From assembly GCA_037379345.1 (NCBI GenBank), contig CM074521.1:25940704-26004703 (forward strand): a DNA stretch of 64,000 nucleotides, read 5' to 3'. This DNA is from Perna viridis (taxonomy: Eukaryota). The notes under the pieces were generated by a model. The model saw only the letters and a program-made list of their open reading frames with translations, had not been told where the DNA came from and ran no database searches. A program made the position numbers and the translations under genes. Of this stretch, positions 18,094 through 60,000 are shown piece after piece. Numbering within the stretch: position 1 is the stretch's first letter; each line of letters starts with the position of its first letter.

Positions 18094-21000
18094 CTGAAAA
18101 AGAAAAAAAATTCTTGTTCATAAATAGTATAACGAGTAATCAAGAGAATCAAGGTTCTAGCGGTAATCAAAAGAATATAATTCTGGGACAAAACCCAGAC
18201 ATGGAAAATAGACATACACAACAAAGAACATAAAGTAACTAAAATCATGCATAAAAGAAACAAAAGCAAACAAGCAACTCGGACTCCACTAAAAACTGGG
18301 AGCATGGACCAGGTGCACCAGTAGGGTAAGCGTACTCTGCTTTTCTAGAAACACCCGCCGAGTTGTTCATAAAAAGTCAAGCCCGGGGTAGACGAAGGAG
18401 GAAAGGAAAACTATGAAACGTTGAACAAATAAATTTTCATTGCACGGATGGATACACCGTAAATGCAATGGCACTCTTTGTGAATTGGCCAGGGAAAGCT
18501 GATTGATATTTATTGTCTGGGCTGTTGTCTCAAGGATTTTTCTCTAAATATCATTAGTCAAGGTACAAACAAATTTATCAATCAAGCCCTTTTTGGAAAA
18601 GTAAAAAAAGAAAACATCAAAAACTGAACTATATACACATGGTAGATGAAACTCTACAGTAAACTAAAGATCTGTTTATAGGAGGGTGGAAAGAAATTAT
18701 GAACAATCATTCTCCTTCCAGTAATTTTGATGTAGTACTTAATGACAAGAATAGGTTTACACATTTTATAAAGAAACAGTCACAAAACTGACTGAAATGT
18801 ACATAATAATTGAAAAAAAAACAAAGGAAATTTAGTGAGGAAACGGTTTTATAGTTTTAATACAGTGTGCTCCCTGGGCCATTTAAGGTAATGTTAAGTT
18901 ATTATAACTAATTATTTTATAGATAGTGTTTCAAATGTGATGCTATAATCCAAAGGGAAAGATGCTATCCAAATTTTCTATTTTACCAGGATGCTGTTTG
19001 AATTTTCTAAGGAGAACACTATTGAAAATTTTTTTTTAATTTAGGACAAGTTTTCAGTTTTAAAGGTACCTACCTCATTTCAAATGATTTCCAATACTCT
19101 GTCATAAAATTTTGGCTTAATCCATCCCCCAATAAAAAAAAAACCAACAAGAGTGTGAGGTCTATGTAGTATAATATCACTTCATACCTGTATTAGCACA
19201 GCTGTTACATTCACATTTGTTAAATCTTGGAATCATGGCTGTTAAAACACTGTCAATTCCTTCACATTTGACATTGACAGTATCAAATGCAGCAATTGTT
19301 CCTGTGCAGCATTTACAGTTTTTATTGGAGGATTCATCATAATTGCTTCCAGATGGCATTAGCATTGGCATGTTCATACTATCACCACATCCTCCTGCAC
19401 AATATGTGTATGTGACATTACCAACAGTTTCACAACCATCTCTTGTCAGTTTTCCTGTGGCTGTGTACATCTTGCATGTGTCTGAAAAAGAGGCCCATCA
19501 TTGTTATATATAATCAAAGATCACCTTTGTTACAGTGAAAAGCCAAGAAATAATGAAGACATATACATCAAACATCATGCAGAAAACATCAGGAAAACAC
19601 TTCAAGTGGGCACAGATTCAGGCAAGAGCACACCCACCCCAATATTGGGAGAAAAAAAATTATTTGCATGAAATATTGATTTTCTTCACAAATTCTACTT
19701 AAAAAATTTGCTTTCCTCCCGTCACCAGGCATTTTATTCTATTAGCGCCACCTCTAACCTGAAATTCTGGATCTGCCCTTGTGAAGCATGGCCCTGATGT
19801 ACAGGAACATTTTTATACTGGGGAGGGGAGCCTGGGATTATTTTGAAAAAAAAAATTAAAATCTTTCCAAATTTTTTTTAAAGCCATAGAGAGAAAAAAA
19901 AAGATTTAATATTTCTCCCATTACGTAACAATATAGATTTTCCAAAAAATATTACAACTTTGGCTGCTGCTAAAAAAATTACCTGTAATTACTGTCACAC
20001 TTGAGTCAAAGAAAAATTTCTAACTCAACACCCCCACCCCCCCAAGAAGAAAATAGTATGCGCCTTAACTTTTCTTCTGTTCTCGAATACCAGCAAATCC
20101 TCATGTATATTTAAGTAACAGTCTTTTATATAAATCAGACTGAACATGATTCATGCATGTCAAAAACACACCAATTTTACTTCTATTTCCTATTCAGAAT
20201 ATCAGCTACAGACCACATAAACAGTCTTGGTCTTTTATTTGGGTGTTGCACTTTTGAAGTAAAATGTATATAGATTGTACATGAAATTAGGACTTTTCAA
20301 GAGTTATCTTTCTTGATTGAGTTTGATTTGGTTGATTTTAGTGGGAGATGAATGTATCATTTTCTCAAAAGTGCAGATCTGAATACAAAAAAAACTAATT
20401 TTACCTAAACATATAGCATCTGAAGAAAGAAATAACATTGTTCTGGTTTTTTTTACACTATGAATCACCTGTTCCATAGGCAGAGTTCGAAATACATATG
20501 GATTGGTAATTAATATTAAGGCCTAATCTTCAAGATAGCATTTTTACAGTTTAAAATATAAAAAAAAAAAAAACCACATATATCAGTTGCACATCCAAAA
20601 ATTAATTGTATTTATGTAAATGAAAAGTTGAAACCAAAGATTCTTAGAGCTAATGATCATTGAAAGACCTGCCATTTAAAATAACTTGCAATTGACAATT
20701 TTACCTGCATCTTCCATAAAGTTCAATGAACAAATCAGTGCTTACCTGTTATAGGTTGACATCTATGACAGCATTCACCATCTTTAACTAACTCTTCTCC
20801 CTATAAAATAGTCAAATAACTGCTGTTAAACAAACAGGTTGCAATAGTATGACCAACGGTCTCTTTATTAGAAATTGAATCTGGTCAACATATATTGCCA
20901 CATAATGACATTCCAAATTTTGAAAACAGCAAGTTGTTTCTTTCAGTCCAGAAAAAGGGCATTTTCTTTTTGAACAGAAAATGAAACCATGATCAAACTT

Positions 21001-33000: not shown

Positions 33001-36000
33001 GGTGGTAACTAAAAAATTAAAGAATATACTGATGAGCAAATTAACAGATTGTAGTTAAAAGTTTGTATGTAGACTGGATTCCCATTTATTAAGCCTGAGA
33101 CTTCACTTCTAAAATGGGCTATCTTTAAAAGACCATCAATGCAAGTATGAAGTATGATAAAAAAAATGTATTAGTGTAAAATTAAAAGAAATGGATGTGC
33201 TTGTTTTAAAAGGAAAAAAGTTTGACTGTAAGTAAGATCATTAAGCATAGACCATATGATTTTCTGATAAGAAATAACTTGACCAGCCAGTATCTGGAAG
33301 AAAAACCTATTCTAGCCAACATTTTGCCTGTTTTTCAAAAAAGTTTTCTTTTAATAACACACAGATAACTTGATCTGCAAAGAGAACATAGAGAAAATAA
33401 AAACCAAACAAACTTCCTGGCAAACATGAAAATCCAAGAGCCAGTTTCTCTTTGTATAAATGTCATTAGCATTTAAATTCTTGGATCATTTTCTTTATTT
33501 ATATTTCCACCTCTTTTTGCTTTACTATTAAATTTCAGAAAAAAGATATTCCCAGGGTTTGATACTGACAGTAGACCTGTTCCATCCTAATTTTGGAGAA
33601 GACTACTTGAAAAAAAATCAGGGTAGTCCTATGGGCTATCTAAATTTTGCCTTATATTTCATAAGATCTAAGAACAGAACCATAAAACGTCTACGGAATA
33701 CCTGTTATACCTCTCAAGTAGTCCTGTTGATTACTAAACAAATGAAGTTAGTGTCAAACCCTGATTCCTGTTTTTAGGCATGTCAGGTTTCCTTATCTCA
33801 TCCACTGAATACATAGTGTTTGTGACATCACAAAAACGCTTCATAACGTTATGTAAATAAGAAGGAATAGTGGTGAGTTAGGTATTCTGAATTCGTGTAT
33901 GTATAACAAAATAGATATTAGTTCTGAAAGAAAAACACTGCCAGAAAAGTTGAAATCTTATCCATGGATGTCTGAAATTTCTGTCAGATTTTTATTATCC
34001 TAACCTGATCCTGTTGGTGTTGTTGTAAAGGCTGTAGGAGTGGACTGAGTAAGGAGTGTTGTGGTTTTAGTTGTACCTAAAGTTGATGTAATTCCACTGG
34101 TTGTCGTCACTGATGTAACTGAAAAGTAAATGGAATTAACATATTATTACAAATAAGGTTATTTAAAATTTTAAAAGCTTTCTCCTGGTAAATTCACCTG
34201 AGTGGATTATATAAGAAATCAATTCTTACTTTTTAATGGATAAAATTTAACAGTTTTATTTGAGCATTAATTTTTTTTTTGTAAAAGAAAAGTAATGTTC
34301 TCATTTTTGCATAGATAAACATTTTAATTAGCGGATCAGTTATGAGTTCTATCAACTGTTGTCCATGTACTGCATAGATGGCAATATATATATAATTTTA
34401 GTAATTTAATAGTTTCATGCAATGCAATTTTTTTGCACTACTAATGCAGCTATTTTCAAGACTAATTCTAAAAAAAGAGTTGTTTCCTTACTCTCTGAAG
34501 AGAAACCCTTACCTAAACAAGCAAATGAAAATATCTTACTCCACCAAAACTGAAAGCATGACCCAGTTATCTTATCAAAGTTCTACTTATTGCATTTTAT
34601 CAATACCAAAGATTCAAACTTTAATCAAGCAGATGTGAATGCTTGAGAATCTCAGACTTCCCTGTAGCCTTCAGTGCAAAGGAAATGGGAATAAAGACAC
34701 AATGTTGTCAACAGTTAGTAAGAAAATCGGATGGGACAGGATTCAGAGTCCGCATTTTTTAGTTATCAATGGTGTCTTAATGTAAAATGTAAGAGCTTCA
34801 AATTGTGGATAAAGGTGCAAATCCATAAAATCAATTTTGTTTTTTTTCAATTGAATAACAATTTGTCTTAATCAATCTTAATTACCCTTAATCAAAAATT
34901 GCTCATCAACATGTTTGATTCAACAGAGTAATCAAGCACAAATACCTTGTTCAAAGCAAGCTCTAACTTCAAGATCAAGAGAGTAGTCCTTCGTGTTGTC
35001 AACCTTACTGAGAACGGAGATTATCATAGCAACTGCCCTGGTATTAACATCAAATACAACTTCTTCATTGCCATTGTATACCTATAGTTAGCATTGAAAG
35101 CAAATACATAAATGATATAGACAGGCATTTAATTGAAAGGAATACTTCTGAAATTATCTGAAGCTGAATATTCAGTTCTTGGTTATAAAAAGACTTTTTT
35201 TTTTAAATGAGAACAAACACTGAGATCAAACAAAATTGTCATATTTTGCACATATCTTTGAAAGTAAAAATACTTGTGGGAATTAAATAGTTGCGGTTTG
35301 ATTATGCTATAAACTGGCCAATATGATACTATTTCATAGCATATCACAAATGGTGATTGATGGCTGAATCACAAAACTCCAGTGTCTATAAACAATAATC
35401 CTTACTATAGTTGAAATGAAAATCAAGCAAAAAGGAACACACAAACAGTACAAGATACACACCTCTCCATTTTTGTATGGAACTGGTGGTTTTCCTTCTT
35501 CAACTACAAGCAAGATTTGAAAAGTGCCAACATTATTGTCTGATGGATTCAAAAACTTAGTAGAACCAAGCTCAGTTTCTATTCCAAATCCAACTTCTAT
35601 GGTGACAGTTTTGTCTTTAACAATCAATGGTTGTCCATTAATATCTGGACGTAAAGCTTCACTATTCTTGTTACCATTGACTATTACTACAGGTGTCAGA
35701 GCTGGATTCTTCATACCTTCTTCACTGGTACATGGGTTCGACACAGGAGTAGTACTGGTTGTTTGTACTTCAAAATAAAATAAAAGTAACAATTATAGCA
35801 AAAATTTAAATGCATACAAATACATACAAAACATTCATGACTATTCCAATAGTTACACATTCAGTCTTCATGAAATAATAACAAAGAACCTGGAAGCAGT
35901 TTTTATCAGAAATTCTTAAAGAGATGCACTTGCAGTTAAGTAATAATTGCTAAAGTAATATGAAATTGTGTTTTTTTTTAAATTTATCTCCACAGAAATT

Positions 36001-39000: not shown

Positions 39001-42000
39001 CCAATGACAAAGACCAGACAGGGAACACAAAGAACATAAAATAACCAAGATAATACATAAACACCAACAAAAGTAAATGAGCCAATAAGGGTTAAAAATA
39101 TCAGTTGTTAACCATAATTTATGTACATTTGTAGCTATAGCAGAGCAAATCTGATTAGAGAGAAAGTGATACATTGGTTGTTTCCTTCTTTTATTAATTA
39201 GAGAAAATACATTTTACCATGTATTTAATAATCAAAATGACCTTAAAACCAATGAACTGATGCATATGGTCAATAGAAAATCACCTGTTGTCTGTGTTCC
39301 TACTGTGGTAGTTCCTGTTGGTGTTTGACCTGTTATTGGAGTTGTAGCAGAAGTGGTGCCTGATGTGGTACCTTGTGATGTTGTAGGAGCAGGAGTACCT
39401 GATGTGGTCTGGCTAACTGTTGTACCAGATGTAGTTCCTTGTGTTGTTGGTGGAGCAGGAGTACCTGATGTGGTCTGGCTGACTGTTGTGCCAGATGTAG
39501 TTCCTTGTGTTGTTGGTGGAGCAGTGGTACCTGAAGTGGTCTGACTTGTGGTTCCAGAAGTAGTACCTTGAGTGGTTGTTGGTGGAGCAGTGGTACCAGA
39601 TGTTGTTTGGCTAGCTGTAGTTGCTGATGTAGTTCCTTGTGTGGTTGGTTGTGCTGTAGTGACTGATGTAGTCTGACTGGTTGTAGTTCCAGATGTGGAT
39701 TGAGTTGTTGATCCAGTGGGTGGTGCTGATGGTGTTGTCTGTCCTGTTGTTGTAACTTAATGAAACAATGTTTATTTTGTTTTAAAAACTTTACTTAGAT
39801 ATATGTTCAAAGAGTAATAAAGAGAACCAAGATTCTACTAGAAATGAGGAGAATGTAATCCAATGACAAAGACCAGACAGGGAACACAAAGAACATAAAA
39901 TAACCAAGATAATACATAAACACCAACAAAAGTAAATGAGCCAATAAGGGTTAAAAATATCAGTTGTAAACCATAATTTATGTACATTTGTAGCTATAGC
40001 AGAGCAAATCTGATTAGAGAGAAAGTGATACATTGGTTGTTTCCTTCTTTTATTAATCAGAGAAAATATATTTTACCATGTATTTAATAATCAAAATGAC
40101 CTTAAAACCAATGAACTGATGTATATGGTCAATAGAAAATCACCTGTTGTCTGTGTTCCTACTGTGGTAGTTCCTGTTGATGTTTGACCTGTTACTGGAG
40201 TTGTAGCAGAAGTGGTGCCTGATGTGGTACCTTGTGAGGTTGTAGGAGCAGGAGTACCTGATGTGGTCTGGCTAACTGTTGTACCAGATGTAGTTCCTTG
40301 TGTTGTTGGTGGAGCAGGAGTACCTGATGTGGTCTGGCTGACTGTTGTGCCAGATGTAGTTCCTTGTGTTGTTGGTGGAGCAGTGGTACCTGAAGTGGTC
40401 TGACTTGTGGTTCCAGAAGTAGTAACTTGAGTGGTTGTTGGTGGAGCAGTGGTACCAGATGTTGTTTGGCTAGCTGTAGTTGCTGATGTAGTTCCTTGTG
40501 TGGTTGGTTGTGCTGTAGTGACTGATGTAGTCTGACTGGTTGTAGTTCCAGATGTGGATTGAGTTGTTGATCCAGTGGGTGGTGCTGATGGTGTTGTCTG
40601 TCCTGTTGTTGTTACTTAATAAAACATGTTTATTTTGTTTTAAAAACTTCACTTAGATATATGTTCAAAGAGTAATAAAGAGAACCAAGATTCTACTGGA
40701 CTCAGGAGAGTGTAATCCAATGACAAAGACCAGACAGGGAACACAAAGAACATAAAATAACCAAGATAATACATAAACACCAACAAAAGTAAATGAGCCA
40801 ATAAGGGTTAAAATATCAGTTGTAAACCATAATTTATGTACATTTGTAGCTATAGCAGAGCAAATCTGATTAGAGAGAAAGTGATACATTGGTTGTTTCC
40901 TTCTTGTATTAATCAGAGAAAATATATTTTACCATGTATTTAATAATCAAAATGACCTTAAAACCAATGAACTGATGCATATGGTCAATAGAAAATCACC
41001 TGTTGTCTGTGTTCCTACTGTGGTAGTTCCTGTTGGTGTTTGACCTGTTACTGGAGTTGTAGCAGAAGTGGTGCCTGATGTGGTACCTTGTGATGTTGTA
41101 GGAGCAGGAGTACCTGATGTGGTCTGGCTAACTGTTGTACCAGATGTAGTTCCTTGTGTTGTTGGTGGAGCAGGAGTACCTGATGTGGTCTGGCTGACTG
41201 TTGTGCCAGATGTAGTTCCTTGTGTTGTTGGTGGAGCAGTGGTACCTGAAGTGGTCTGACTTGTGGTTCCAGAAGTAGTACCTTGAGTGGTTGGTGGTGG
41301 AGCAGTGGTACCAGATGTTGTTTGGCTAGCTGTAGTTGCTGATGTAGTTCCTTGTGTGGTTGGTTGTGCTGTAGTGACTGATGTAGTCTGACTGGTTGTA
41401 GTTCCAGATGTGGATTGAGTTGTTGATCCAGTGGGTGGTGCTGATGGTGTTGTCTGTCCTGTTGTTGTAACTTAATGAAACAATGTTTATTTTGTTTTAA
41501 AAACTTTACTTAGATATATGTTCAAAGAGTAATAAAGGAAACCAAGATTCTACTGGAAATCAGGAGAATGTAATCCAATGACAAAGACCAGAAAGGGAAC
41601 ACAAAGAACATAAAATAACCAAGATAATACATAAACACCAACAAAAGTAAATGAGCCAATAAGGGTTAAAATATCAGTTGTAAACCATAATTTATGTACA
41701 TTTGTAGCTATAGCAGAGCAAATCTGATTAGAGAGAAAGTGATACATTAGTTGTTTCCTTCTTTTATTAATCAGAGAAAATATATTTTACCATGTATTTA
41801 ATAATCAAAATGACCTTAAAACCAATGAACTGATGCATATGGTCAACAGAAAATCACCTGTTGTCTGTGTTCCTACTGTGGTAGTTCCTGTTGGTGTTTG
41901 ACCTGTTACTGGAGTTGTAGCAGAAGTGGTGCCTGATGTGGTACCTTGTGATGTTGTAGGAGCAGGAGTACCTGATGTGGTCTGGCTAACTGTTGTACCA

Positions 42001-45000
42001 GATGTAGTTCCTTGTGTTGTTGGTGGAGCAGGAGTACCTGATGTGGTCTGGCTGACTGTTGTGCCAGATGTAGTTCCTTGTGTTGTTGGTGGAGCAGTGG
42101 TACCTGAAGTGGTCTGACTTGTGGTTCCAGAAGTAGTACCTTGAGTGGTTGTTGGTGGAGCAGTGGTACCAGATGTTGTTTGGCTAGCTGTAGTTGCTGA
42201 TGTAGTTCCTTGTGTGGTTGGTTGTGCTGTAGTGACTGATGTAGTCTGACTGGTTGTAGTTCCAGATGTGGATTGAGTTGTTGATCCAGTGGGTGGTGCT
42301 GATGGTGTTGTCTGTCCTGTTGTTGTAACTTAATGAAACAATGTTTATTTTGTTTTAAAATCTTTACTTAGATATATGTTCAAAGAGTAATAAAGAGAAC
42401 CAAGATTCTACTGGAAATCAGGAGAATGTAATCCAATGACAAAGACCAGACAGGGAACACAAAGAACATAAAATAACCAAGATGATACATAAACACCAAC
42501 AAAAGTAAATGAGCCAATAAGGGTTAAAAATATCAGTTGTAAACCATAATTTATGTACATTTGTAGCTATGGCAGAGCAAATCTGATTAGAGAGAAAGTG
42601 ATACATTGGTTGTTTCCTTCTTTTATTAATTAGAGAAAATACATTTTACCATGTATTTAATAATCAAAATGACCTTAAAACCAATGAACTGATGCATATG
42701 GTCAATAGTAAATCACCTGTTGTCTGTGTTCCTACTGTGGTAGTTCCTGTTGGTGTTTGACCTGTTACTGGGGTTGTAGCAGAAGTGGTGCCTGATGTGG
42801 TACCTTGTGATGTTGTAGGAGCAGGAGTACCTGATGTGGTCTGGCTAACTGTTGTACCAGATGTAGTTCCCTGTGTTGTTGATAGAGCAGGAGTACCTGA
42901 TGTGGTCTGGCTGACTGTTGAGCCAGATGTAGTTCCTTGTGTTGTTGGTGGAGCAGTGGTACCTGAAGTGGTCTGACTTGTGGTTCCAGAAGTAGTACCT
43001 TGAGTGGTTGTTGGTGGAGCAGTGGTACCAGATGTTGTTTGGCTAGCTGTAGTTGCTGATGTAGTTCCTTGTGTGGTTGGTTGTGCTGTAGTGACTGATG
43101 TAGTCTGACTGGTTGTAGTTCCAGATGTGGATTGAGTTGTTGATCCAGTGGGTGGTGCTGATGGTGTTGTCTGTCCTGTTGTTGTAACTTAATGAAACAA
43201 TGTTTATTTTGTTTTAAAAACTTTACTTAGATATATGTTCAAAGAGTAATAAAGGAAACCAAAGTTCTACTGGAAATCAGGAGAATGTAATCCAATGACA
43301 AAGACCAGACAGGGAACACAAAGAACATAAAATAACCAAGATAATACATAAACACCAACAAAAGTAAATGAGCCAATAAGAGTTAAAAATATCAGTTGTA
43401 AACCATAATTTATGTACATTTGTAGCTATAGCAGAGCAAATCTGATTAGAGAGAAAGTGATACATTGGTTGTTTCCTTCTTTTAATAATTAGAGAAAATA
43501 CATTTTACCATGTATTTAATAATCAAAATGACCTTAAAACCAATGAACTGATGCATATGGTCAATAATAAATCACCTGTTGTCTGTGTTCCTACTGTGGT
43601 AGTTCCTGTTGGTGTTTGACCTGTTACTGGGGTTTTAGCAGAAGTGGTGCCTGATGTGGTACCTTGTGATGTTGTAGGAGCAGGAGTACCTGATGTGGTC
43701 TGGCTAACTGTTGTACCAGATGTAGTTCCTTGTGTTGTTGGTGGAGCAGGAGTACCTGATGTGGTCTGGCTGACTGTTGTGCCAGATGTAGTTCCTTGTG
43801 TTGTTGGTGGAGCAGTGGTACCTGAAGTGGTCTGACTTGTGGTTCCAGAAGTAGTACCTTGAGTGGTTGTTGGTGGAGCAGTGGTACCAGATGTTGTTTG
43901 GCTAGCTGTAGTTGCTGATGTAGTTCCTTGTGTGGTTGGTTGTGCTGTAGTGACTGATGTAGTCTGACTGGTTGTAGTTCCAGATGTGGATTGAGTTGTT
44001 GATCCAGTGGGTGGTGCTGATGGTGTTGTCTGTCCTGTTGTTGTAACTTAATGAAACAATGTTTATTTTTTTTTAAAACTTTACTTAGATATATGTTCAA
44101 AGAGTAATAAAGGAAACCAAAGTTCTACTGGAAATCAGGAGAATGTAATCCAATGACAAAGACCAGACAGGGAACACAATGTATATAAAATAACCAAGAT
44201 AATACATAAACACCAACAAAAGTAAATGAGCCGATAAGGGTTAAAAATACCAGTTGTATACCATAATTTATATACATTTGTAGCTATAGCAGAGCAAATC
44301 TGATAAGAAAAAAGTGATACATTGGTTGTTTCCTTCTGTTATAAATTAGAGAAAATATATTTTACCATGTATTTAATAATCAAAATGACCTTAAAACCAA
44401 TGAACTGATGCATATGGTAAATAGAAAATCACCTGTTGTCTGTGTTCCTACTGTGGTAGTTCCTGTTGGTGTTTGACCTGTTACTGGGGTTGTAGCAGAT
44501 GTGGTGCCAGATGTGGTACCTTGTGATGTTGTAGGAGCAGGAGTACCTGATGTGGTCTGGCTAACTGTTGTACCAGATGTAGTTCCTTGTATTGTTGATG
44601 GAGCAGGAGTCCCTGATGTGGTCTGGCTAACTGTTGTACCTGATGTAGTTCCTTGTGTTGTTGGTGGAGAAGTTGTACCAGATGTGGTCAAACTAGCTGT
44701 TGTACCAGTAGTAGTACCTTGTGTAGTTGGTGGAGCAGTGGTACCAGATGTTGTCTGGCTAGTAGTTGTACCAGACGTTGATACACTTGTTCCTGTTGGT
44801 GGAGCTGGAGGTGGAGGAGTGGTAACTGATGTACCTAAATTAGAAACCAGTTTGAAGATAAACTACATTTAAAAGCAGTGGGTTGTACATGAAATATTTC
44901 GAACTGTTGAAATAATACATTTTTCCCTTATGGACATTTTCCTGTTAAGATATCCAATGTATGAAGGGGTCATGTTACCTTATATTTCTTTTTTATAATT

Positions 45001-48000
45001 CAATAAAAACAATTAAGTTCATATTGTGTATAAGGCAAATTGTTATCTTACAATACGATATTACAATGATAACTGTTAGATATTGTGGAGGTATTCTCCC
45101 TCACTACAAGTATACTGCTTGTATAAAATGCAGCATTTAATGAAAGTAATAGGTTCCTATACTAGGGAATATAGATGCAATATTGATGCACAAAAGCAAA
45201 AGTTGATTAAAAAATGAAAATTGGTAAATACGAAAAAGACAGAAACCATGAGAAGGAAAGATATATTTTCAAAATATATTATAATTTCACAGAAATAAAT
45301 GAACCAAATATCTTTGCTTTTAAGTTTCTTACCTGACGTAGTTCCTGTTGTTGTTGATTGTGTTGTAGAAACACTTGTGGTTGCTAAAATGAAAATAGAT
45401 AGTTAATGAAATTTTTATGAGATTATTTTTTATTCTTCTATTTAGTACAAATTTCAGGTTTTTTTGTAGATTGTAAAGAACATGACAGTCTGAGATATTT
45501 AATAATTTTTTTTAACTTAGTATCCTTTATCAATACTGGAATAAGTAAACTAATGCTTGTAAAGCCAAGTCTTAATTGATGCTTGAATGCATGCACATTC
45601 AATTAACAGTTCCAGCACTACTAATACAACAACTTTTACTGTTCTTTTTTTAAATGTAATTGGAAGTATGAAGCCAATATGTATCACGTGTCAATGGAAT
45701 TATATATGTCTCACCAGGTGTGTAACACACTCTGAAAGTGACATCACTTAAACTGCCTGGTGTAGATATATCTGTCATAGGTTTGAAGAAAATAACCAGT
45801 GAATCAGCACTCTTCATTTGGAAATTCAAACCAATGGTATTTATGGCATCTTTTGTGCTGAACGATTGCTGTAAATAAGTGAATATAATAGCATTTAACA
45901 AACTTTCTACAGTTCATATAGTTTATCCTGGATAAGCTATCTGACTTGACTTCATCAACCATTTCACCCTTTCTAATAAATGACAAGAAGCTTAACTGAT
46001 TAATTTTTGTACTTTTTAACTTTATAGATTGAACTTTGAAGAAATGAAATGGATAAATGAGCTTTCAAGTTATATTGTAAATTAAAATGTACTATGCATT
46101 CATTCTTAAATGATATATACTGAAACAAAACAAAGTAACACCATGAGAAAAGGACCTGATTTCAATCTACAAAGAATTAATCATGCATTATTTTGTACCA
46201 AATAACATTTTGAAAACTGATGAAGGTACTGTTTGGCTGCAGTCAGGCAATTCTAATTTTTATGTAAAGAATTTGTGGGTTTTACTTCACCATAAAAAAC
46301 ACTACTTCACTGAATCTTGAAAAATAAAATGTATTTGTACCGCAAAAATAATATTAGTTTCCTTATGTAGTGAACAAATCACATATGTAATATGCACACA
46401 TGATAAATCGTTTCCTTGTATATAAAATTTCAAGTTTGTAAAACCAAAAAGTACAAACTTTTAAGTACTATTAATGAACTGCAAATTGAACCTTTGGATA
46501 TCTGAATGAAATATTTGAGTGAGTGCAAAATAGGAAAATCTCGGAAATCGCCGGTCAGATTGAATTTTTATTCAACTTGTCTTTAAAATGTGGGACATTT
46601 TAAAAACAAATAAAGGAAACAATCACAGTTATCCTGGTTCAGGATTTTGAACAGTTCAGACATCCTTTAGTAAGATATGACTATTACATTATTCTTAAAC
46701 TCATTGTGCACATTATTACAGGAAAGAGCAAACAGCTAAAATATAAATTTTCATGTTTATTTACTGAGAAATTAAAAGACTATGCAGATACTTTTTAAAC
46801 ATGTCTGTTATTTTGGCTTTCTCCTGACTTCAAAACCTTAAAGTGCTAAACACCCACCGTTTGTGTCATAACTGTTTCATCATTAAGTGTCAATGATATT
46901 GTAACCTCTGCAATGTTTACTGTACTGAATGAACCATCTACGAATACAACATCATTTCCTTTGACATTATATGTGACAGAGGTTCCATTCTCACTGGCTT
47001 CATAGGATGCCGTAGAACTCTTCAGAGAATCAAGTACACTTTGCCCAGGTTTTTCATTTGAAGATGTGATGACAAGATCACTATCATCATTGTTATTGTA
47101 ATCAAATATCTTAGGATGCTCACAGACACCTAAAGAGAAATATATAATATAAAATTAAATGTTGCAGTATTTAATGTATACTAAAGTTTATATTATAAAG
47201 TTATAACCAAGTGATAATGAAATGATCTACAACTAATAGTAGCAAAAAAAAAATGAAATCAAAATGATGAAGATCACTTAATTTCTAAGTTTGACATTCG
47301 ATTGTTCTCAAAAGCTTAAATTCAGAATTGCACATGCATAATATGATATTATAAAACTTGAAATATATATTAAAAAATACAAAATTGAGGTGACACCTAA
47401 ATTATTTAACTAAATAAAAATAATAAGGTAATTTTTTGGGAAGTATAAAAGTGTTTCTTTAAAAAGTCTAGTAAAACTTACCTGATGGTGTTGAACTTGT
47501 TGACACAGCAGTTGTACCTATGGAAAATTAAAAATAAATGTAATGAAGCCTATGGAAAAAAGGTGATATTTGCTAGTTTTACACAAAGATCCACTTTCAG
47601 TAATGAGTATGTTATTTTTTTTCTCTACTCAAGATAGTAAAGTTTCGATTTCCAATATGCAAGCTTTAGCTTTTACTTAGGGGGTGCAGTCAATCAAATC
47701 ATGAATACACTGAAGGAGAATCGGTTTCCCCCTTGAAATCCACAGAAAAATGGAAAATATAAAATGGCAAGGAACCTCTCACCGAAATTTAATCACAGCC
47801 TGTGATTAAAAAGTCACATTCATTTTATACCACCGGCTTAGGAAGGGAGAAAAATACTTATTTTGCACTTAACCAAATATTAATAACTTTTTTACCTCAT
47901 TTGGGGAACCATTGGATTGATAGTGGTCAAGGAAAGTATTCTTTTCATTATTTTATTTTTGTTATTACATTTTACTTGATTTTATTAAAATGATGTTAAC

Positions 48001-51000
48001 AATTAGCCCATCCTTGTTCATTATGATTTCTTGTCATTTTTTAAATTTTAATTTGTTTTGTCCCAAATTCTTAATATAACACATCATTCAACACACAGTA
48101 AATTTGTGTACACATCTCTGAAACTGTAAGATTCATTTAAATTAAGCAAGACTTTTTGTTATCAAGTGTAGATAATGTAATGCATTACCAGTTGTTCCAG
48201 TTGTCAGCGTTGTTGTAGCTGTTCCTAAAATTACAAAGAAAAAAACAACATGAATTAATAACAAAAAAAAACAACAAAAAACAAAAACGAAAAGGAAATA
48301 GTTCAATTTTAGGCACACACTGTAATCTTTATATTGAATAATATACTCGAAGATATAAATATTGATACATCTTTTTTATAATTATCAATTTAGTTTATAG
48401 TAACTCTTGTTTTTTCTAATTTTCATGCAGATATAGTAGGTACTTGTCATTTAGAAGGAGTTGAATTTGATATGACCTAGAAATCAACAATGGTTTTATT
48501 TATTTTTTTTCTTCAGTAAACTGATATCTATTTATTTTGTAATTTGTTGGTCTGTTGTATGTGATACTTTCTAAGAAAGTTCCCCCCTTTGACAATGTTG
48601 ATGGTGTAACATTATAAAGGAAGAAAATACACCAGTACATGTTCTTTATTAACAGAAAAGAAAAGTCTGAACAAAACCGTTAACAAATAGGTTTAACAAT
48701 TTATGTAAATTGCAAGAAAAGAACTTACAGTATTTCAAATTAATGAATTTTATGAAAAAAAAATTCAGTAATTAAATAGTTGTATCTTAGTAAATAGTGA
48801 CTTAAAACGATTCAAGTCCATATAATCATGATCAATTCACGTTTACACACAATTGATTGCCAATAAATGATATTTATATTAACATGTACTTAACCTAAAG
48901 CTGAATTTGACTTCCATAAATAAATAATCAGTATACCACCATATTTAAACTTATTTAAATGAATAAAACTAAAAAAATTAAAGTACAAAAGTTTTGACAT
49001 GTTATAAAGTTTTCATGCAGGAAAATAATATAATAATTTTTCCATTGTGATACATGTATTATAGTCTTAAAAACTGTATTAACAACTGTTATCATTTGTC
49101 AATTTGTATTTACTAAATGTGTATATATTTATTCTTGGGTTTTATTATCAGTATTTTTTTTAAATAGATTCACTGGATTTACTTACCTGGTGTGTAACAA
49201 ACTCTAAACTCAACAATTAATCCAGGTGGTGTTGAAATATTAATCTTTGGTTTCACTGTTACTCTCAAGACATCTGCTTCTTGCATGCGGAAATCCATGG
49301 TAAAGACATTCGACAAATCCTTCGTTTGGTAAATTTTCTACAATCCAAAAATATGTAACCGTGTAAATAGGAACAAGCCTACTGCAAGACAACAACATTT
49401 GAAAAAAAGAAACATAATATTGAAAATATAAGAAAATACATTTATCATGCCTTTTTTGTTCATACTGATAATATCCTGCAAAGAATTAGCCTTACTTAAT
49501 AATATATATTGTATGTAACAATTTCAATCCATCTGGTACATACGTGAATTATAAAAATCTAAATGAGTTCCAGGTAAATATGAACATAAGAACCACTAGA
49601 ATTTCAAAGAATTAGATTTTTGTTCAGTAAAATTTATTATATTCTAAGTTTTTTTTCTAAATCAAATACTGAATGTGTGCATCATAAAACATGACGGAAA
49701 TAAATAAGTTATGCTTTTATTTCTTAACTTTTCAAACTTCATACCTTTTCTGATGTAACTTCAGTTCCTTCCACAGTTACCAAAGACACTGTTATTTCTT
49801 CAATGTTGATAGTTTCAAATGTACCATCAACAAATGACACTGGATTTCCTTTGCCATTGATGATATAATTAACTTCACTTCCATCATCATTTGGCACAAA
49901 GTTTATGCCAGATCCCTTCAATGAATTGACACCTTCTTCACCGGGTTTGCCATTAGATATTTCAATTTGTAGATCCTTGTCATCTTTAGCACTATAATTG
50001 ATTGTTTTGGGATTTTCACACAACGCTAAATGTAAAAGAAAAAATCAATTATCTAATGTAAATTGCAATAAAATAGAAATAGTGTGAGCAAGCTAACAAA
50101 GACAATACTCCTCACTTTACATGCGGTTGAATATAAATTATAACCTGTGAGTTCATCAAAATCCATTCAGTTTAGGAGGAAAATTGCACTTACTAAGTTT
50201 TAGCATGTAAAACCCTTGTGTTGTATTATCTCCATTTGGAGTCCCCTGACAGTAAATATATTACTGTGCATTCCCATTTATATTCAGTAGTAACAAAACT
50301 TCAAATGAGCATCAAAACCTAAAAATTGCACACATATGCTTGATTTTTTTTTTTACAGAAGGCCAAGGTAATGGAGTAGATCATTTTTTGGAAAATTGAA
50401 TTCCACTTTCTAAGATTAAAATACAGTTTCGATACCTAAAAACTGAAAAAAAGTCTACTTCATGTAAAACTCATTTTGAAAATTGCACACCTTGATGATC
50501 GAATATTTTTGTTGGAAATAATCACCGATATTTTAAAAATGTATGCCATTTTTCAAGATCAGATTTGTAAATTCATTTTTCACATCTGTTTTTGTTAAGA
50601 TTTTTTTTTTCAATTTACCGTCATTAAAACTTCAATTTGGGTATCTAGGAAATGAAATTGTGAATTAGGCATAAATGTGTTAAACTATTCAATGAAAATG
50701 TTTGTGTCATAAAATGGTTAAACTCGAAAGGTGTACATAGTTCCTTTTTTTCATTAGTATATATTTTTTCATGTACATTTATATATGATGCCCAACATTA
50801 CTATAAAGTTTTATCAAAATCCCTTGAGAGGTTAAGAAGGGTGTGCGCATACAACAAATGTTAACAGACAGGCTGACAGACAGATGGGGAGATTCCTATA
50901 TATCAACGAACTTGTTTTGTAGGGAGGGGGATAAAATTACTTTTTCTGAACATTATTTAAAATTTACTGTCGACATTACACCTTAAAGGCTAATAATGCT

Positions 51001-54000
51001 TATTCTGCTCATGATAAAATTACGGGAAAATTGGCTACAGCCTTAACAGCAAATTGCCAATAAAATCCGAAATGGATTCAACAATCTAATACCAAATAAC
51101 CGGTTACCCTGGCAGATTTAAAATTTGATATATTTTGAAGCAAGATTAAGTGTAGAATTTTGATGATTCTAAGCAGGGCACTCGTTATACAGTATATAAA
51201 TTCAAATATACTTATTTTATTGAGCATACTTTTACAGAAGTTAGATACTATAGTTTATGTTTACCTAATGTTGTACCAATTGTGGTTATAGATGTAGTGC
51301 TAGAAGATGGTGCTGGTGGTGTTGTAGTTCCTGTAGTTGATTCTGAAATGAGAAACAAAAACACAATTATATAAACCACGCCAACCACCCTTGCCTTTGC
51401 AATTATTGAAAACCAATTGATTAACCATTTTTTTACCAACTAAAAGAGATAAGCACAAGAAGATGAAAAAAATTTGATAATTAAAAAAAGGCAAAATTGT
51501 AAAGAAGACAGCTGAAATAATAATAAAACTTTAAGTAGTTCATGTTAAAACAACATTTTAATTATAGAAAAAAAATCATTAAATGGTTTCCTTGCAATAG
51601 CAACCATAAAACCATAGGTAGAGCCTCAAACACACTGCACGCCAGTGTATGCTATTACATCATAACAGTGCTTTCACCATGAGCTTAAACACACATTAGA
51701 AGCTACAACTAAAATGCATAAAATTATTTACAGAATAGTAGTAGCTTTCGTAGCACAATAAGCAGTAACTGATGGAACTGATATGGTTTCTCTACCAATA
51801 CACCTGATGTAGTTCCTCAAGATTTCTGGGAATCAGTACATAGTGGTGTCAGTAATGGTTTAAATCTATATTAGGCTAGCTGCTTTTTTTTCCATTGGTG
51901 GTACCTGAATTTGTTTGGAAAGTTCTTCCAGCAGTGGTACCGTATATGGTCAGACACGATGTTTTTTTTTCAGCTGTGGTTCCTGATATTATAAGAATGG
52001 TTGCGTACCTGATGTAGCTTGGGTAGCAGTTAATATGGCAGTGAAACTGAATGGTTTAACGTAGTTTGCTAGGAGTGGTATTTGGTACAATTTGGCTAGA
52101 AGTAAACCCAGCAGAAATTAAGATTTGTACTAAACAGTTTTGTCAGCAGTATTACCAGATTACGCATTAAGTGGTTCAGTGAAACATAATATTTTCTCGC
52201 AAGATGTACCAGATTTAATACTTCTATTGTTGGTTTTTGAAACTGCTCCATCAGCAATAGCAACTACAATTTACTACTCACTCAAACTACGAACACCTAT
52301 CAAAAAACCACGTCATAATATGGATCTTGGCACAAAGTAAACAGTACCCAAAATTAAAGTGACAAATATATTTCTAATTTCAATAACTAGGATAAATGTA
52401 TTGGATAACGTCTATTGATAATTTGGGAATGTTACAATTCAAGTAATTTAAACAGTAAGTAGTATTTACTTTATTTTATAATTATAGAAAATAAGCATTC
52501 CCCTACAAAGATTAACCCTTTGATCAAAAGCTTAAAAAATCCCAAGAGTAAATAAATTTCAATAATTAAATAATAAAGGTGTAACATATGACTGTCCATT
52601 CTTTCCTTGAGACAGCCCTCATTAAATACCTTAAAACCTGCTAATTACGCCATTTCTGTTTCTGCACAAAATACTGTATACGTTCTTTTGTAGGATAGAC
52701 GTTTACAACATCATATGAAAATCTTCGAAGAAAGTTTGTGGATTTAAGTTTATAATGTTATTTATAACAACACATAATTAAAATACGTCTTGCGTAACAA
52801 AATAATTGATCATACAAAGTTCTAAATGCAATTTCAATGTATATACTTTTGTTGAACCACCCTGTAGAAAGGGTTTTTCTATGCCTTTAGATTTTCTGGT
52901 TTTTTAAACAGTATAGTGATTTTTGAATATCTTCATTACTCATGAAATGTTTACATCCAAATCCCTGTTGATTGTGTTCCTACAGTGGTTGTTATAGAGA
53001 GAACCTGACCACTACAATTAGTACAAGAAAAAAAAAGTTGTGGTTTGACTAGCTGTTGTAACAGATGTAGTTACTGAATTGTTTTATCCATTTTATTTAT
53101 CAGAAAAAAACATCTTATTCACAATGCTTAACTTCTACATATTCATTTGCTTTTACATTCCATCTGTAAATTTTACATGTATACTAATTCTTAAAAAGCA
53201 AATAATCAACAAACCAAATAGAAAAAAAAAGAATTAGTGAGAAAAGTAACAGTACTTCCAAAAAGACAGTAAGCATTTAGATACACAACACAACAAATAA
53301 CAATGGAACAATTCTCAATAATAATACAACACTTCATTGATGCATAACACTTATGAGGAGCAGTCTTAACTTAAATGCAAATAGAGCTTCAGCAACATAT
53401 TTTTGAAAAGTTCTCAGATGAACAATCAATAACTCATTACCTGAGTTACTAAATATGTTGTTCATGTAGGAACTTGGCCAGTTGGTTGAGAAGTAACCGG
53501 ATGTTGTGAGAAAAACTACCTGATGTGGTCGAACTAACTGTTGTTAGTGGAGCAGTTCTACCAGATGTAGTACTCTGGCTGACTGTTCAAACAGATGTAA
53601 TTGCTTGTGTGGTTGTTGGAGCAGTAGTATCTGACATAGCCTGAATAGTAGTAGTACCTTGAGTGGTTGGTGGTGCAGGAGTTCCTGATGTAGTCTATCT
53701 GTTGTGTCTAATGTAATACCTTGTGAAAATGGTGGCGCAGTAGTTTTTGATGTAGTCTTAGTTACTGATGTACATATATTGTACCTTGTGTGGTAGATAG
53801 AGAAAGAATAACTGGTGTGTTCTGACTAGCTGTGTTTATTTGTGTGGTAGATGGAAAAGGAGTACCTGATGTGTCAGATTTACGATTGTACCAGCTGTGG
53901 TACTTGTGTGGTTGGTGCACCAGTCGTGCCTGAAGCCGTCTAGATTGTACTAATGTAGTTACTTGAGTGCTTGGTGGAGCAGGAGTACCTGAAGTAGTCT

Positions 54001-57000
54001 GACTTGCTCTTGTACCAGAAGTAGTAACTTGTGTGCTTGGTGGGGCAGTACTTGATGTGGTCTGACTAGCAATTGTACCAGATGTAATTTCTAGTATCGC
54101 TGATGGAGCAGGAGAACCTGCACTTGTTTGGCAGGGTTTTGTACCAGAAGTACTACCTTGTGTAGTTGGAGGAGCAGTAGTTCCTGAAGTTTTCTGATAA
54201 GCTATTGTTCCACAAGTAGAACCGTATGTATTTGGTGGAGCAACAGTTTTTTTGGCTAGTTGTAGTGCAAGATGTAGTTACTAATGTTTGATTTAATGTA
54301 CGGTCAGTGGTTGGGACCGATGTTTGGCTTGTTGCAGATGTAGTTGTACTAGCTGTTGTTCCAGTTGGCGGTGGGGGTGGAGTAGTTTGATCTGTTGTTG
54401 ATTCTGGGAGAAGTTATCGAATGTATTCTTTAACATAAACCACTTTTCATCTCACCTTACTCTGATTTCCCATGCCAGACGAATGGCATATCAAAAGGAA
54501 ACAAACAGAACAAAACAACAACAGAACAAATTACAAAGGTTCATATCTCCATAATATGACCAAAATTCATTGAGAAAACGAGGAGCGGTATTTCGCTTCT
54601 CATTGACTTAAATACTAATATAGTTTGAGCTAAGAATATTTTAAATGTCTCAATGTGCTGATGAACAACAATCAATTACCTGTTGATTGAGTAACCAAAG
54701 ATGTTGTTCCTGTAGGAGTTTGACCAGTTGATGGTGAGGTAGCCGATGTTGTCAGACTGACAGTTGTTGTAGGTGGAGCAGTAGTACCTGATGTAGTCTG
54801 ACCAGTAGTAGTACCTTGGGTGGTTGGGGGAGCAGGTGTTCCTGATGTTGTCTGGCTAACTGTAGTGCCAGATGTAGTTCCTTGTGTGGTTGTGGGAGTA
54901 GTCGTTCCTGATGTGGTCTGGCTTACTGTTGTAGATTTAGTTACTTGAGTGCTTGATGATGTAGTGGTTCCTGAGGTGCCCTGACTTGCTGTTGTACCAG
55001 AAGTGGTAACTTGTGTAGTTGGAGCCGGTGTACCGGATGTAGTCGGACTTTCTGTTGTACCTGATGTAGTACCTTGTGTGCTTGGTGGTGCAGGAGTTCC
55101 TGATGTGGTCTGAATAGTGGCTGTACTAGATGTAGTACCTTGTGAAGTTGGTGGAGCAGTAGTACCTGGTGTAGTTTGACTAGTTGTTGTACTAGATGTA
55201 GTACCTTGTGTGGTTGTTGGTGCAGGAGTACCTGATGTGGTCTGACTAGCTGTTGTTCCAGATGTAGTTACTTGTGTGGTAGATGGAGCTGGAGTACCTG
55301 AAGTTGTCTGACTTCCTGTTGTACCTGAAGTAGTAACTTGTGTGGTTGGTGGAGCAGTACTTGATGTGGTCTGACTAGCTGTTGTACCAGATGTAGTACC
55401 GTGTGTGGTTGTAGGGGCAGGAGTACCTGAAGTTGTCTGGCTGGCTGTTGCACCAGATGTTGTACCTTGTGAGGTTGGTAGAGTAGTAGAGCCTGAAGTT
55501 GTCTGACTAGCTGTTGTTCCAGAAGTAGAACCAGGTGTAGTTGGAGAAGTAGTACTTGAGGTGGTTTGGCTTGTTGTAGTGACAGATGTAGTTACTGATG
55601 TTTGAGTTAAAGTAGTGCCAGTGGTGGTTTCTGATGTTTGGCTGGTTGTCTCAGATGTGGTGGTACTAGCTGTTGTTCCAGTTGGAGGTGGAGGTGGAGT
55701 AGTTTGTCCTGTTGTTGATTCTGGAAGAAGTTATCAAACGTTTCTTAAACATAAACCATTTTTCCATATTACTTTAGTCCTTTCTCTTATTTCCCATAGC
55801 AGTCGTCGGATAACAACAAAACAAATTAAAAAGTTTCAAACCTCCATAAAATGACAAAAAACTGATTGAGGAATAACATTTAAGAGGAGCTGTACTTGGC
55901 TTCTCTTTGACTTGTATGCTTGTATAGTTTGGGCAAAATATTTTTGAAATGTTCTCAATCTGCTGATGAAAACAAATAACTTACCCGTTGATTGTGTTAT
56001 TAAAGATGTTGTTCCTGTAGGTGTTTGACCAGTTGGTGGGGTAGTAACTGATGTTGTAGCAGAAACAGTACCAGATGTGGCCAGACTAACAGTTGTTGTA
56101 GGTGGAGCAGTAGTACTTGATGTAGTCTGACTAATTGTTGTACCAGATGTAGTACCTTGTGTAGTTAGTGATGCAGGAGTTCCTGATGTGGTCTGACTAG
56201 CTGTTGTTCCAGAAGTAGTTCCTTGTGTGGTTGGTGGAGCAGTGGTACCTGATGTAGTCTGACTAGCTGTTGAGCCAGATGTAGAACCTTGTGTGGTAGT
56301 AGGAGGAGGTGTGGTTGGTGGAGCAGTGGTACCTGATGTGGTCAGACTAGCTGTTGTTCCAGATGTGGAACTTTGTGTGGTAGTAGGAGGAGGAGTGGTT
56401 GGTGGAGCAGTGGTACCTGATGTGGTCTGACTAGCTGTTGTGCCAGATGTAGAACTTTGTGTGGTAGTAGGAGGAGGTGTGGTTGGTGGAGCAGTGGTAC
56501 CTGATGTGGTCTGACTAGCTGTTGTGCCAGATGTAGAACTTTGTGTGGTAGTAGGAGGAGGTGTGGTTGGTGAAGCAGTGGTACCTGATGTAGTCTGACT
56601 AGCTGTTGTGCCAGATGTAGAACTTTGTGTGGTAGTAGGAGGAGGAGTTGTTGGTGGAGCAGTGGTACCTGATGTGGTCTGACTAGCTGTTGTGCCAGAA
56701 GTAGTTCCTTGTGTAGTTGGTGAAGCAGTGGTACCTGATGTGGTCAGACTAGCTGTTGTACCTGATGTAGTACCTGGTGTGGTTGGTGGGGCAGTGGTAC
56801 CTGATGTGGACTGACTAGCTGTTGTACCTGATGTAGTACCTTGTGTGCTTGTTGTTGCAGCAGTTCCTGATGTGGTCTGACTAGTGGCTGTACTAGAGAT
56901 AGTACTTTGTGAAGTTGGTGGAGCAGTAGTACCTGGTGTAGTTTGACTAGTTGTTGTAATAGATGTAGTACCTTGCGTGGTAGTTGGTGCAGTGGTACCT

Positions 57001-60000
57001 AATGTGGTCTGACTAGCTGTTGTTCCTGATGTAGTTACTTGTGTTGTAGATGGAGCTGGAGTACCTGAAGTTGTCTGACTTGCAGTTGTACCAGATGTAG
57101 TTACTTGTGTGGTTCGTGGAGCAGTAGTTGATGTGGTCTGACTAGCTGCTGTACTAGATGTAGTACTTTGTGTGGTTGGTGGAGCAGGAGTACCTGAAGT
57201 TGTCTGGCTGGCTGTTGTACCAGATGTTGAACCTTGTGTGGTTGGTTGAGTAGTAGAGCCTGAAGTTGTCTGACTAGCTGTTGTTCCAGAAGTAGAACCT
57301 GGTGTAGTTGGTGGAGAAGTAGTACCTGAGGTGATTTGGCTTGTTGTAGTGACAGATGTAGTTACTGATGTTTGAGTTAAAGTAGTGCCAGTGGTGGTTT
57401 CTGATGTTTGGCTGGTTGTCTCAGATGTGGTGGTACTAGCTGTTGTTCCAGTTGGAGGTGGAGGTGGAGTAGTTTGTCCTGTTGTTGATTCTGGAAGAAG
57501 TTATCAAACGTTTCTTAAACATAAACCATTTTTCCATATTACTTTAGTCCTTTCTCTTAATTCCCATAGCAGTCGTCGGATAAATTGTTTAATTCATGTT
57601 ATTTAATCACAAAAACAGATCATCTAGAATGCTAGATTGGCAACAATTTCAATTGCTTTTAAATGGATATGTAGATTTTATGTTAATTGAAAAAAAAAAA
57701 ACTACAAATAAACAACAAAACCACATAAAAACACATACAAAATGAGAAAGAATTGGTGAGACGAGTAGCAGTAAGTTCAAAAGTACAACAAACACATAAA
57801 CAACATACAAATTAAAAAGTTTCAAATCTCCATAAAAATGACAAACAACTGATTGAGGAATAACATTTATGAGGAGCTGTACTTGGCTTCTCTTTGACTT
57901 GTATGCTTGCATAGTTTGGGTTAATTATTTTTGAAATGTTTTCAATCTGCTGATGAAAACAAATCACTTACCCGTTGATTGTGTTATTAAAGATGTTGTT
58001 CCTGTAGGTGTTTGACCAGTTGGTGGGGTAGTAGCTGCTGTTGTAGCAGAAACAGTACCAGATGTAGTCAGACTAACAGTTGTTGTAGGTGGAGCAGTAG
58101 TACCTGATGTAGTCTGGCTGGCTGTTGAACCAGTTGTAGGACCTTGTGTGGTTGGTGGTGCAGTGGTACCTGATGTAGTCTGACTAATTGTTGTACCAGA
58201 TGTAGTACCTTGTGTGGTTGTTGATGCAGGAGTTCCTGATGTGGTCTGACTAGCTGTTGTTCCAGAAGTAGTTCCTTGTGTAGTTGGTGAAGCAGTGGTA
58301 CCTGATGTGGTCTGACTAGCTGTTTTTCCAGATGTAGAACTTTGTGTGGTAGTAGGAGGAGGAGTGGTTGGTGGAGCAGTGGTACCTGATGTGGTCTGAC
58401 TAGCTGTTGTGCCAGATGTAGAACTTTGTGTGGTAGTAGGAGGAGTGGTTGGTGGAGCAGTGGTACCTGATGTGGTCTGACTAACTGTTGTTCCAGAAGT
58501 AGTTCCTTGTGTAGTTGGTGAAGCAGTGGTACCTGATGTGGTCTGACTAGCTGTTGTACCTGATGTAGTACCTGGTGTGGTTGGTGGGGCAGTGGTACCT
58601 GATGTGGACTGACTAGCTGTTGTACCTGATGTAGTACCTTGTGTGCTTGTTGTTGCAGCAGTTCCTGATGTGGTCTGACTAGTGGCTGTACTAGAGGTAG
58701 TACTTTGTGAAGTTGGTGGAGCAGTAGTACCTGGTGTAGTTTGACTAGTTGTTGTAATATATGTAGAACTTTGCGTGGTAGTTGGTGCAGGAGTACCTGA
58801 TGTGGTCTGACTAGCTGTTGTTCCTGATGTAGTTACTTGTGTGGTAGATGGAGCTGGAGTACCTGAAGTTGTCCGACTTCCTGTCGTACCAGATGTAGTT
58901 ACTTGTGTGGTTCGTGGAGCAGTAGTTGATGTGGTCTGACTAGCTGTTGTACTAGATGTAGTACTTTGTGTGGTTGGTGGAGCAGGAGTACCTGAAGTTG
59001 TCTGGCTGGCTGTTGTACCAGATGTTGTACCTTGTGTGGTTGGTTGAGTAGTAGAGCCTGAAGCTGTCTGACTAGCTGTTGTTCCAGAAGTAGAACCTGG
59101 TGTAGTTGGTGGAGAAGTAGTACCTGAGGTGATTTGGCTTGTTGTAGTGACAGATGTAGTTACTGATGTTTGAGTTAAAGTAGTGCCAGTGGTGGTTTCT
59201 GATGTTTGGCTGGTTGTCTCAGATGTGGTGGTACTAGCTGTTGTTCCAGTTGGAGGTGGAGGTGGAGTAGTTTGTCCTGTTGTTGATTCTGGAAGAAGTT
59301 ATCAAACGTTTCTTAAACATAAACCATTTTTCCATCTTACTTTAGTCCTTTCTCTTAATTCCCATAGCAGTCGTCGGATAAATTCTTTAATTCATGTTAT
59401 TTAATCACAAAAAACAGCTCATCTAGAATGCTAGATTGGCAACAATTTCAATTGCTTTTAAATGGATATGTAGATTTTATGTTAATTGAAAAAAAACTAC
59501 AAATAAACAACATAAACACATACAAAATGAGAAAGAATTGGTGAGACGAGTAGCAGTAAGTTCAAAAGTACAACAAACACATAAACAACAAAACAAATTA
59601 AAAAGTTTCAAATCTCCATAAAAATGACAAAAAAACTCATTGAGGAATAACATTTATTAGGAGCTTTACTTGGCTTCTCTTTGACATGTATGCTTGTATA
59701 GTTTGGGCAAAATATTTTTGAAATGTTTTCAATCTGCTGATGAAAACAAATCACTTACCCGTTGATTGTGTTATTAAAGATGTTGTTCCTGTAGGTGTTT
59801 GACCAGTTGGTGGGGTAGTAGCTGATGTTGTAGCAGAAACAGTACCAGATGTGGTCAGACTAACAGTTGTTGTAGGTGGAGCAGTAGTACCTGATGTAGT
59901 CTGGCTGGCTGTTGAACCAGTTGCAGTACCTTGTGTGGTTGGCGGTGCAGTAGTACCTGATGTGGTCTGACTAATTGTTGTACCAGAAGTAGTTCCTTGT

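Follow-up and report, generated by a model that had tools for sequence, protein, structure and literature searches.

Gel-forming mucins are built into polymers by way of VWD assemblies at the N-terminus and a cystine knot at the C-terminus. In MUC2, MUC5AC and MUC5B, the Pro/Thr/Ser-rich (PTS) regions carry CysD modules; two reports describe CysD as having five disulfides and docking in MUC2 filaments (PMC11912381), and poly-CysD as making mucus stiffer (PMC6861317). Lang et al. (2016, PMC4948705) present F5/8 type C (F5/8C, discoidin) domains as characteristic of lophotrochozoan mucins, and CysD placed among F5/8C domains as an arrangement of Lophotrochozoa. Here we analyze a 64,000-nucleotide stretch of Perna viridis DNA (the window; C11:25940704-26004703, with C11 denoting contig CM074521.1 of a 723-Mb genome; coordinates without prefix are window positions). 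It carries part of a mucin gene in which three modules with two Cys each, D1, D2 and D3, interrupt the PTS regions. These modules are most likely a Pfam-invisible offshoot of F5/8C, present in more than 100 copies in one mucin locus, and not a new kind of domain.

The modules resemble the F5/8C domains of hemolectin-like or lophotrochozoan mucins in their place, which is next to PTS and flanked by three N-terminal VWD-C8-TIL units on one side and by the C-terminal part on the other (PMC4948705). Also alike are the terminal Cys pair, the intron position and the predicted jelly roll, and two recognisable F5/8C copies occur in this gene. Unlike those domains, D1-D3 fall below Pfam cut-offs, have no Trp, span 132-139 residues and are acidic; the gene holds at least 109 modules rather than a few, and no second VWD block was detected after them. 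With CysD, they share the character of a small globule in PTS (here predicted to be disulfide-bonded) that is present in many copies, but they show no homology to it and have no WxxW motif, two Cys and a different predicted fold.

SCO-spondin and SCO-spondin-like mollusc proteins have VWD/C8/TIL units, LDLa repeats, TSP1 and TIL repeats and a C-terminal cystine knot in common with the gene, which differs by its huge middle part of PTS and beads. SCO-spondin has a single FA58C domain at that place and more TSP1 repeats than this mucin. A Potamilus protein named SCO-spondin contains at least 4 modules of the present family, and a report (PMC7333891) places SCO-spondin-like proteins, e.g., P-vulgata_3 and P-vulgata_6, in limpet pedal mucus. 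CBM32, F-type lectins, DOC/APC10 and IFT25 are similar to the predicted fold of a Mytilus homologue, but at 6-19% identity, and the fucose motif of F-type lectins was present in 0 of 50 domains scanned.

Results

Modules D1-D3 and their splicing

The modules and the short exons around them are encoded as follows.

49745..50025, minus strand: D1 exon 1, with the first Cys (phase 1 in, 0 out)
49187..49337, minus strand: D1 exon 2, with the last Cys (phase 0 in, 1 out)
48189..48224, minus strand: short Thr-rich linker exon from D1 to D2 (RNA-like read joints and translation)
47482..47517, minus strand: short Thr/Ser-rich linker exon preceding D2 (RNA-like read joints and translation)
46858..47129, minus strand: D2 exon 1 (exon model and RNA-like reads)
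45715..45868, minus strand: D2 exon 2 (exon model and RNA-like reads)
45330..45383, minus strand: Thr-rich linker exon following D2 (RNA-like read joints)
35463..35767, minus strand: D3 exon 1, a Thr/Ser linker and then the first Cys (exon model)
34946..35081, minus strand: D3 exon 2, with the last Cys (exon model; splice deduced)

All exons of the three modules have AG acceptors, GT donors, phases 1-0-1 and no stop codons. Each module contains two Cys, its first and last, and no Trp; the Cys-to-Cys span is 139 residues in D1, 137 in D2 and 132 in D3, whose first exon opens with an 11-residue Thr/Ser linker. The positions, Cys content and exon split given in a preliminary description of this DNA thus hold, as does its view of D1 and D2 as paralogs: they are identical at 65 of 140 aligned residues, a value equalled by none of 2000 shuffles. 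D3 had no significant pairwise likeness to D1 (159 of 2000 shuffles as high) or to D2 (969 of 2000).

Sequencing reads bear out the splicing proposed earlier for D1 and D2. In three of three RNA-like runs from three studies (the RNA status being the tool's guess; none of the listed carriers is recorded as RNA), the introns 49337/49745 of D1 and 45868/46858 of D2 are removed with GT-AG ends, and the flanking joints through the short Thr-rich exons are likewise spliced; in the sole DNA-like run examined, the D1 and D2 introns are retained. D3 is probably spliced as modelled, judging by conserved splice sites and by two paralogues in the same gene and two in a neighbouring gene. In one D3 paralogue in the upstream DNA (L010:2286, the 3' end of exon 1), the donor appears to be GC, not GT.

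Relationship to F5/8 type C domains

D1 and D2 had been proposed as a possibly undescribed family, and no Pfam family reached its cut-off for the D1-D3 exons. PF00754 (F5/8 type C, curated cut-off 28.2 bits) had no match to the six exons scanned singly, for which only scattered sub-threshold Pfam matches were seen, and matched 1 of 13 whole-domain homologues (E 0.2). Recognisable F5/8C modules are found in the same gene. Two of them, F1 and F2, sit between an array of modules and the first D1/D2-type copy and have two exons, two terminal Cys and phases 1-0-1; F2 exon 1 alone passes PF00754 (30.7 bits), and F1 exon 1 matches with E 0.0028. In a Mytilus trossulus gene model, an array-type module adjoins the F1 counterpart. 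One further upstream copy weakly matches F5_F8_type_C (E 5.6e-4), ANAPC10, F5_F8_type_C_2 and XRCC1_N, which we take to be galactose-binding-like models, and the D1/D2-type profile scores 16.7 bits on this copy (0 of 300 shuffles as high).

A profile built from 26 modules, from which the D1/D2 type, F1 and F2 were excluded, scored 18.9 bits on D1, 19.8 on D2 and 18.0 on F2, and near full length it gave 18.9-27.6 bits on all five D1/D2-type copies; in each case, 0 of 300 shuffles were as high. F1 received merely 3.7 bits (1 of 300 shuffles as high). As controls, reversed copies did not exceed 7.7 bits, and unrelated repeat and VWD proteins (24,130 residues) did not exceed 10.4. The family profile placed only 3 of 12 canonical F5/8C targets above all shuffles.

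Gene structure provides independent support for F5/8C ancestry. A phase-0 acceptor lies just before an F-x-G motif in 5 of 5 separate canonical F5/8C second exons (four other loci) and in F1 and F2, and the intron of D1-D3 is at the same phase-0 site. A Cys pair at the domain ends, which forms a disulfide in animal F5/8C members, is present in D1-D3, F1 and F2. The Trp of the W-x-P motif is absent from D1-D3, as had been noted, but this absence does not extend to the type at large: the motif is present in F1, F2 and one upstream copy, and in 3 of the 5 D1/D2-type copies of this genomic region.

Predicted fold

An array-type whole domain from Mytilus coruscus (residues 190-321), modelled with 12 relatives, is predicted to be nearly all beta, with a predicted local distance difference test score (pLDDT) of 81.6 and a predicted template modelling score (pTM) of 0.77. 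In Foldseek, the top 7 rows for this model were F5/8C, CBM32-type and factor VIII C2 domains (best E 2e-3), followed by neuropilin b1, lactadherin and factor V C2. VIA-align gave Z of 8.0-9.1 (root-mean-square deviation 3.3-4.6 over 113-128 residues) for DOC, IFT25, CBM32, neuropilin and discoidin I. The closest named clusters in the ESM Atlas, which serve as leads only, were F5/8C and CBM32 (scores 0.81-0.82). The homologue model thus agrees with an earlier guess that the modules have a discoidin-like jelly roll. A PDB sequence search with the family alignment returned four rows, none significant (best E 0.076; one CBM32, E 0.32). D2 exon 1 modelled alone, a partial domain, gave no confident fold (pLDDT 49.8), and word-based searches with a 2000-residue limit, which are weak evidence, found no spliced D1/D2-type domain in database proteins.

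Copy number, array and subtypes

Three domains had been described. All three are present, but they are merely the last of at least 111 modules in the gene. In the window and the upstream DNA, examined for 300 kb beyond it, a profile of the first exon had 109 matches of at least 20 bits, all on the minus strand; this count is a lower bound, to which F1 and F2 are added. An array at C11:26051000-26130000 holds 71 of the 109, in two-module exon-plus-intron units of about 2.23 kb. Across 35 aligned units, mean DNA identity including introns is 99.5%, and the units are at least 99.0% alike, which suggests recent unequal crossing-over or concerted evolution. Array copy number may be polymorphic or mis-assembled. 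A broken reverse-transcriptase-like insertion was observed in the phase-0 intron of F2 (L014:2380-3480), with similar pieces elsewhere in the introns of the gene.

The gene has four D1/D2-type and three D3-type modules. A convergent paralogous region on the plus strand (C11:25.69-25.91 Mb) has at least 58 further first-exon matches, including one D1/D2-type and two D3-type copies. This region (C11:25690000-25910000), which may comprise one gene or two, also has single PTS frames, one of 3017 codons and one of more than 3500, as well as a cystine knot (25909227-25909595) and TSP1 exons in two places, 25.82 and 25.90 Mb. In a tree of 33 modules, each type occupies one side of a branch, with support of 99/96 for D1/D2 (five copies), 92/86 for D3 and 99/99 for F1 plus F2; the deeper branches have weak support, and the root was placed arbitrarily. 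D1 and D2 had been set apart from D3 as a domain family. They are instead part of a five-copy subgroup of one large family, to which D3 also belongs and which is connected to the recognisable F5/8C domains of this gene.

CysD modules in the genome

The WxxW motif of CysD (PF13330) was found in 0 of 50 module domains scanned, and 0 of 22 genome-wide CysD matches fall in this mucin gene; 18 of the 22 are in a different mucin-like gene some 1.1 Mb away (C11:27.12-27.17 Mb). That gene (C11:27108000-27170000) has VWD domains, and its 18 CysD matches are interleaved with 7 canonical F5/8C matches, so that it is hemolectin-like by layout. It belongs to a mucin cluster on the same contig.

Taxonomic range

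Among 1.84 billion representative proteins, the first-exon profile matched 112 at E of 0.001 or less, with a Mytilus protein on top. Named animal carriers (30 plus 5 records looked up) are four Mytilus species, Mercenaria, Potamilus, Patella, Liolophura and Owenia, i.e., bivalves, a limpet, a chiton and an annelid. Carrier proteins have up to 21 copies and names such as mucin-17-like and SCO-spondin. One record among the relatives carries a bacterial label, probably because animal DNA ended up in a metagenome bin. Bacterial-type Ig/PKD/Listeria-Bacteroides repeat proteins, which made up 11 of 25 longer matches scanned with Pfam, gave short partial alignments and were set aside as chance. The D1/D2 subtype looks narrow in range, because its clear matches beyond the exons of this gene are limited to two unnamed clusters. 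We found no description of the divergent form or its amplification in literature searches with poor coverage of subscription journals, and fig. S4 of PMC4948705 may depict it.

The host gene and its surroundings

The other parts of the gene that lie in the window are listed below.

53762..63502, minus strand: large PTS exons upstream of D1, with a 66-bp repeat unit (from sequence)
36625..44862, minus strand: PTS (Thr/Ser/Pro) mucin exons between D2 and D3
20746..34118, minus strand: C-terminal exons with Thr-rich linkers, TSP1, TIL and VWC-like pieces (Pfam; VWC-like by eye)
19188..19481, minus strand: C-terminal cystine knot exon (DAN 30.2 bits, cut-off 22)
18041..18093, minus strand: final coding exon and stop (translation)

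The PTS exons between D2 and D3 include eight exon-plus-intron units of about 858 bp that are at least 93% alike (mean 96.9%). From D3 downstream, a chain of 19 exons stays open through TSP1, TIL and the cystine knot to the stop at 18041. Three TSP1 and two TIL exons tested in the C-terminal part exceed their Pfam cut-offs; on the cystine knot exon, the Cys_knot model scores 23.3 bits, below its cut-off of 24. Just past the last PTS stretch are Cys-containing exons at 31961-32138 and 31360-31409, possibly a divergent VWC-like module; the former had no Pfam match at E 0.01.

The gene reaches about 265 kb past the window on the same strand. From its 5' end, an EGF exon is followed by three VWD-C8-TIL units and LDLa repeats, and the modules come next. 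Pfam VWD matches are located at C11:26257142 and 26269364; the third VWD start and the C8 and TIL exons were read by eye in translations. With three N-terminal VWD-C8-TIL units, PTS regions and a C-terminal cystine knot, the gene has the features of a gel-forming mucin. Because there is a single VWD set, a single cystine knot and a common strand, the VWD-C8-TIL units, D1-D3 and the cystine knot would share one transcript, spanning about 312 kb of DNA.

The 3' end of the mucin gene faces, tail to tail, plus-strand exons at 2700-15700 that are caspase-like, with SHG and QACRG motifs at 10391-10687, and presumably encode a CARD-containing caspase. A 103-bp tandem repeat (14.1 copies, 99% matches) at 4699-6153 is probably intronic in this gene. 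A 17-bp repeat at 8012-8264 lies within a decayed stretch resembling a long interspersed nuclear element (LINE).

Discussion

The data point to D1-D3 as a degenerate F5/8C offshoot, below Pfam detection and most likely with a common fold and ancestry; the ancestry by itself we regard as highly probable. For this ancestry together with a putative role of the modules as weak multivalent stickers, we estimate a probability of about 0.6. In such a scenario, copies of an ancestral two-exon F5/8C cassette with phase-1 ends would have spread freely by duplication into the PTS region and would have drifted in sequence. Each module would be closed by a predicted end-to-end disulfide, and the chain would polymerise via its N-terminal VWD-C8-TIL units and C-terminal cystine knot. 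If the whole locus forms a single transcript, the beads alone would amount to more than 15,000 residues (111 x ~135). Beads lying between glycosylated PTS stretches could make many weak non-covalent contacts in the place of CysD and would not be classical sugar-binding lectins; because the beads are acidic (pI 4.1-4.9 in 16 of the 16 degenerate modules listed), these contacts might be cation-bridged. The lack of any CysD match in the gene fits modules serving as positional stand-ins for CysD, the role in which they had first been cast.

Several observations weigh against this interpretation. The link from D1-D3 to canonical F5/8C is, as far as the profiles tell, a transitive one, because a profile built on 11 pieces of canonical F5/8C domains in other genes detects F1 (35.4 bits) and F2 (60.4 bits) but misses D1 (-1.5 bits, a score equalled by 237 of 300 shuffles), D2 (0.1 bits, 127 of 300) and D3 (0.1 bits, 22 of 300). 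The hhalign comparison of the D1/D2 type with the array type is moderate (probability 72%, E 3.4e-5; exon 1 alone 19%), and four F5/8C copies at C11:27.13 Mb are without the phase-0 intron. The fold assigned to D1-D3 is carried over by homology from the modelled array-type domain, for which 0 Foldseek rows were under E 0.001 and the VIA-align Z of 8-9 barely exceeds the tool background of 7-8. Finally, the 312-kb gene is presumed, from its domain content and strand, to be a single continuous transcript.

The best surviving alternative, which we consider unlikely, is that the modules are passive discoidin-derived spacers, closed by a disulfide, or beads resistant to proteases, making the chain longer and stiffer without any binding role. 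Free sequence drift among subtypes would agree with this, since the first Cys is the sole invariant residue of exon 1 across 21 copies, and so would the few aromatic residues in many copies (3-13 Phe, Trp and Tyr in degenerate modules vs 12 in F2 and 18 in F1); homogenisation of the 71-copy array, introns included, also fits unequal crossing-over rather than selection on each copy. However, both the D1/D2 and the D3 type persist in each of two paralogous mucin genes, and other unnamed records also contain D1/D2-type exons with 14 invariant positions, which suggests subtype-specific constraint.

Less probable still, and in our judgement quite unlikely, are true lectins of the CBM32/discoidin type, whose ligands would be glycans on adjacent mucin chains, microbes or food particles. 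The predicted fold does match CBM32, discoidin I and a fucose-binding module, and about 100 copies would supply avidity. But none of the 50 domains has the fucose motif HX24RXDX4(R/K), Trp is missing from D1-D3, and the highest VIA-align Z values belong to DOC and IFT25 domains. The fold also serves without sugar binding, as in factor V C2, which binds phospholipid according to PMC5712786, the source of the fucose and calcium motif definitions. A loosened pattern for the F-type calcium motif, h2DGx following the short helix, matches at residue 63 of D1 and 61 of D2, there in a region predicted to be strand and not behind that helix. That D1 and D2 belong to an unrelated new beta-sandwich family, sharing exon phases and terminal Cys alone with discoidin-like modules, is very improbable: D1/D2 do lack pairwise similarity to D3 and are missed by the canonical profile, and the D2 fold attempt was limited to exon 1, but the 18.9-27.6 bits against the profile lacking their type exceed the shuffled, reversed and unrelated controls, 3 of 5 copies retain W-x-P at the place it has in discoidin, and the intron position is the same.

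A wider extension of the sticker hypothesis is tentative and, on balance, doubtful. It would hold that a discoidin offshoot, unannotated so far and spread across Lophotrochozoa, replaced CysD as the putative non-covalent cross-linker in one mollusc/annelid mucin class, with exon-pair amplification yielding one chain of more than 100 beads, of several conserved subtypes each having its own partner, that ranks among the largest gel-forming proteins known.

Because the commonest globular module of mollusc mucus proteins has no model, most of these proteins bear misleading automatic names, such as "mucin-17-like", "RNA polymerase II subunit rpb1-like" or "uncharacterized". With the module identified as a discoidin offshoot, one could build a profile for it and reassemble these genes. 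With 132-140 residues and one predicted disulfide, the module should be easy to express. It also makes testable the question of whether beads in PTS regions cross-link mucus gels whatever their fold, CysD in vertebrates and a discoidin-derived module here.

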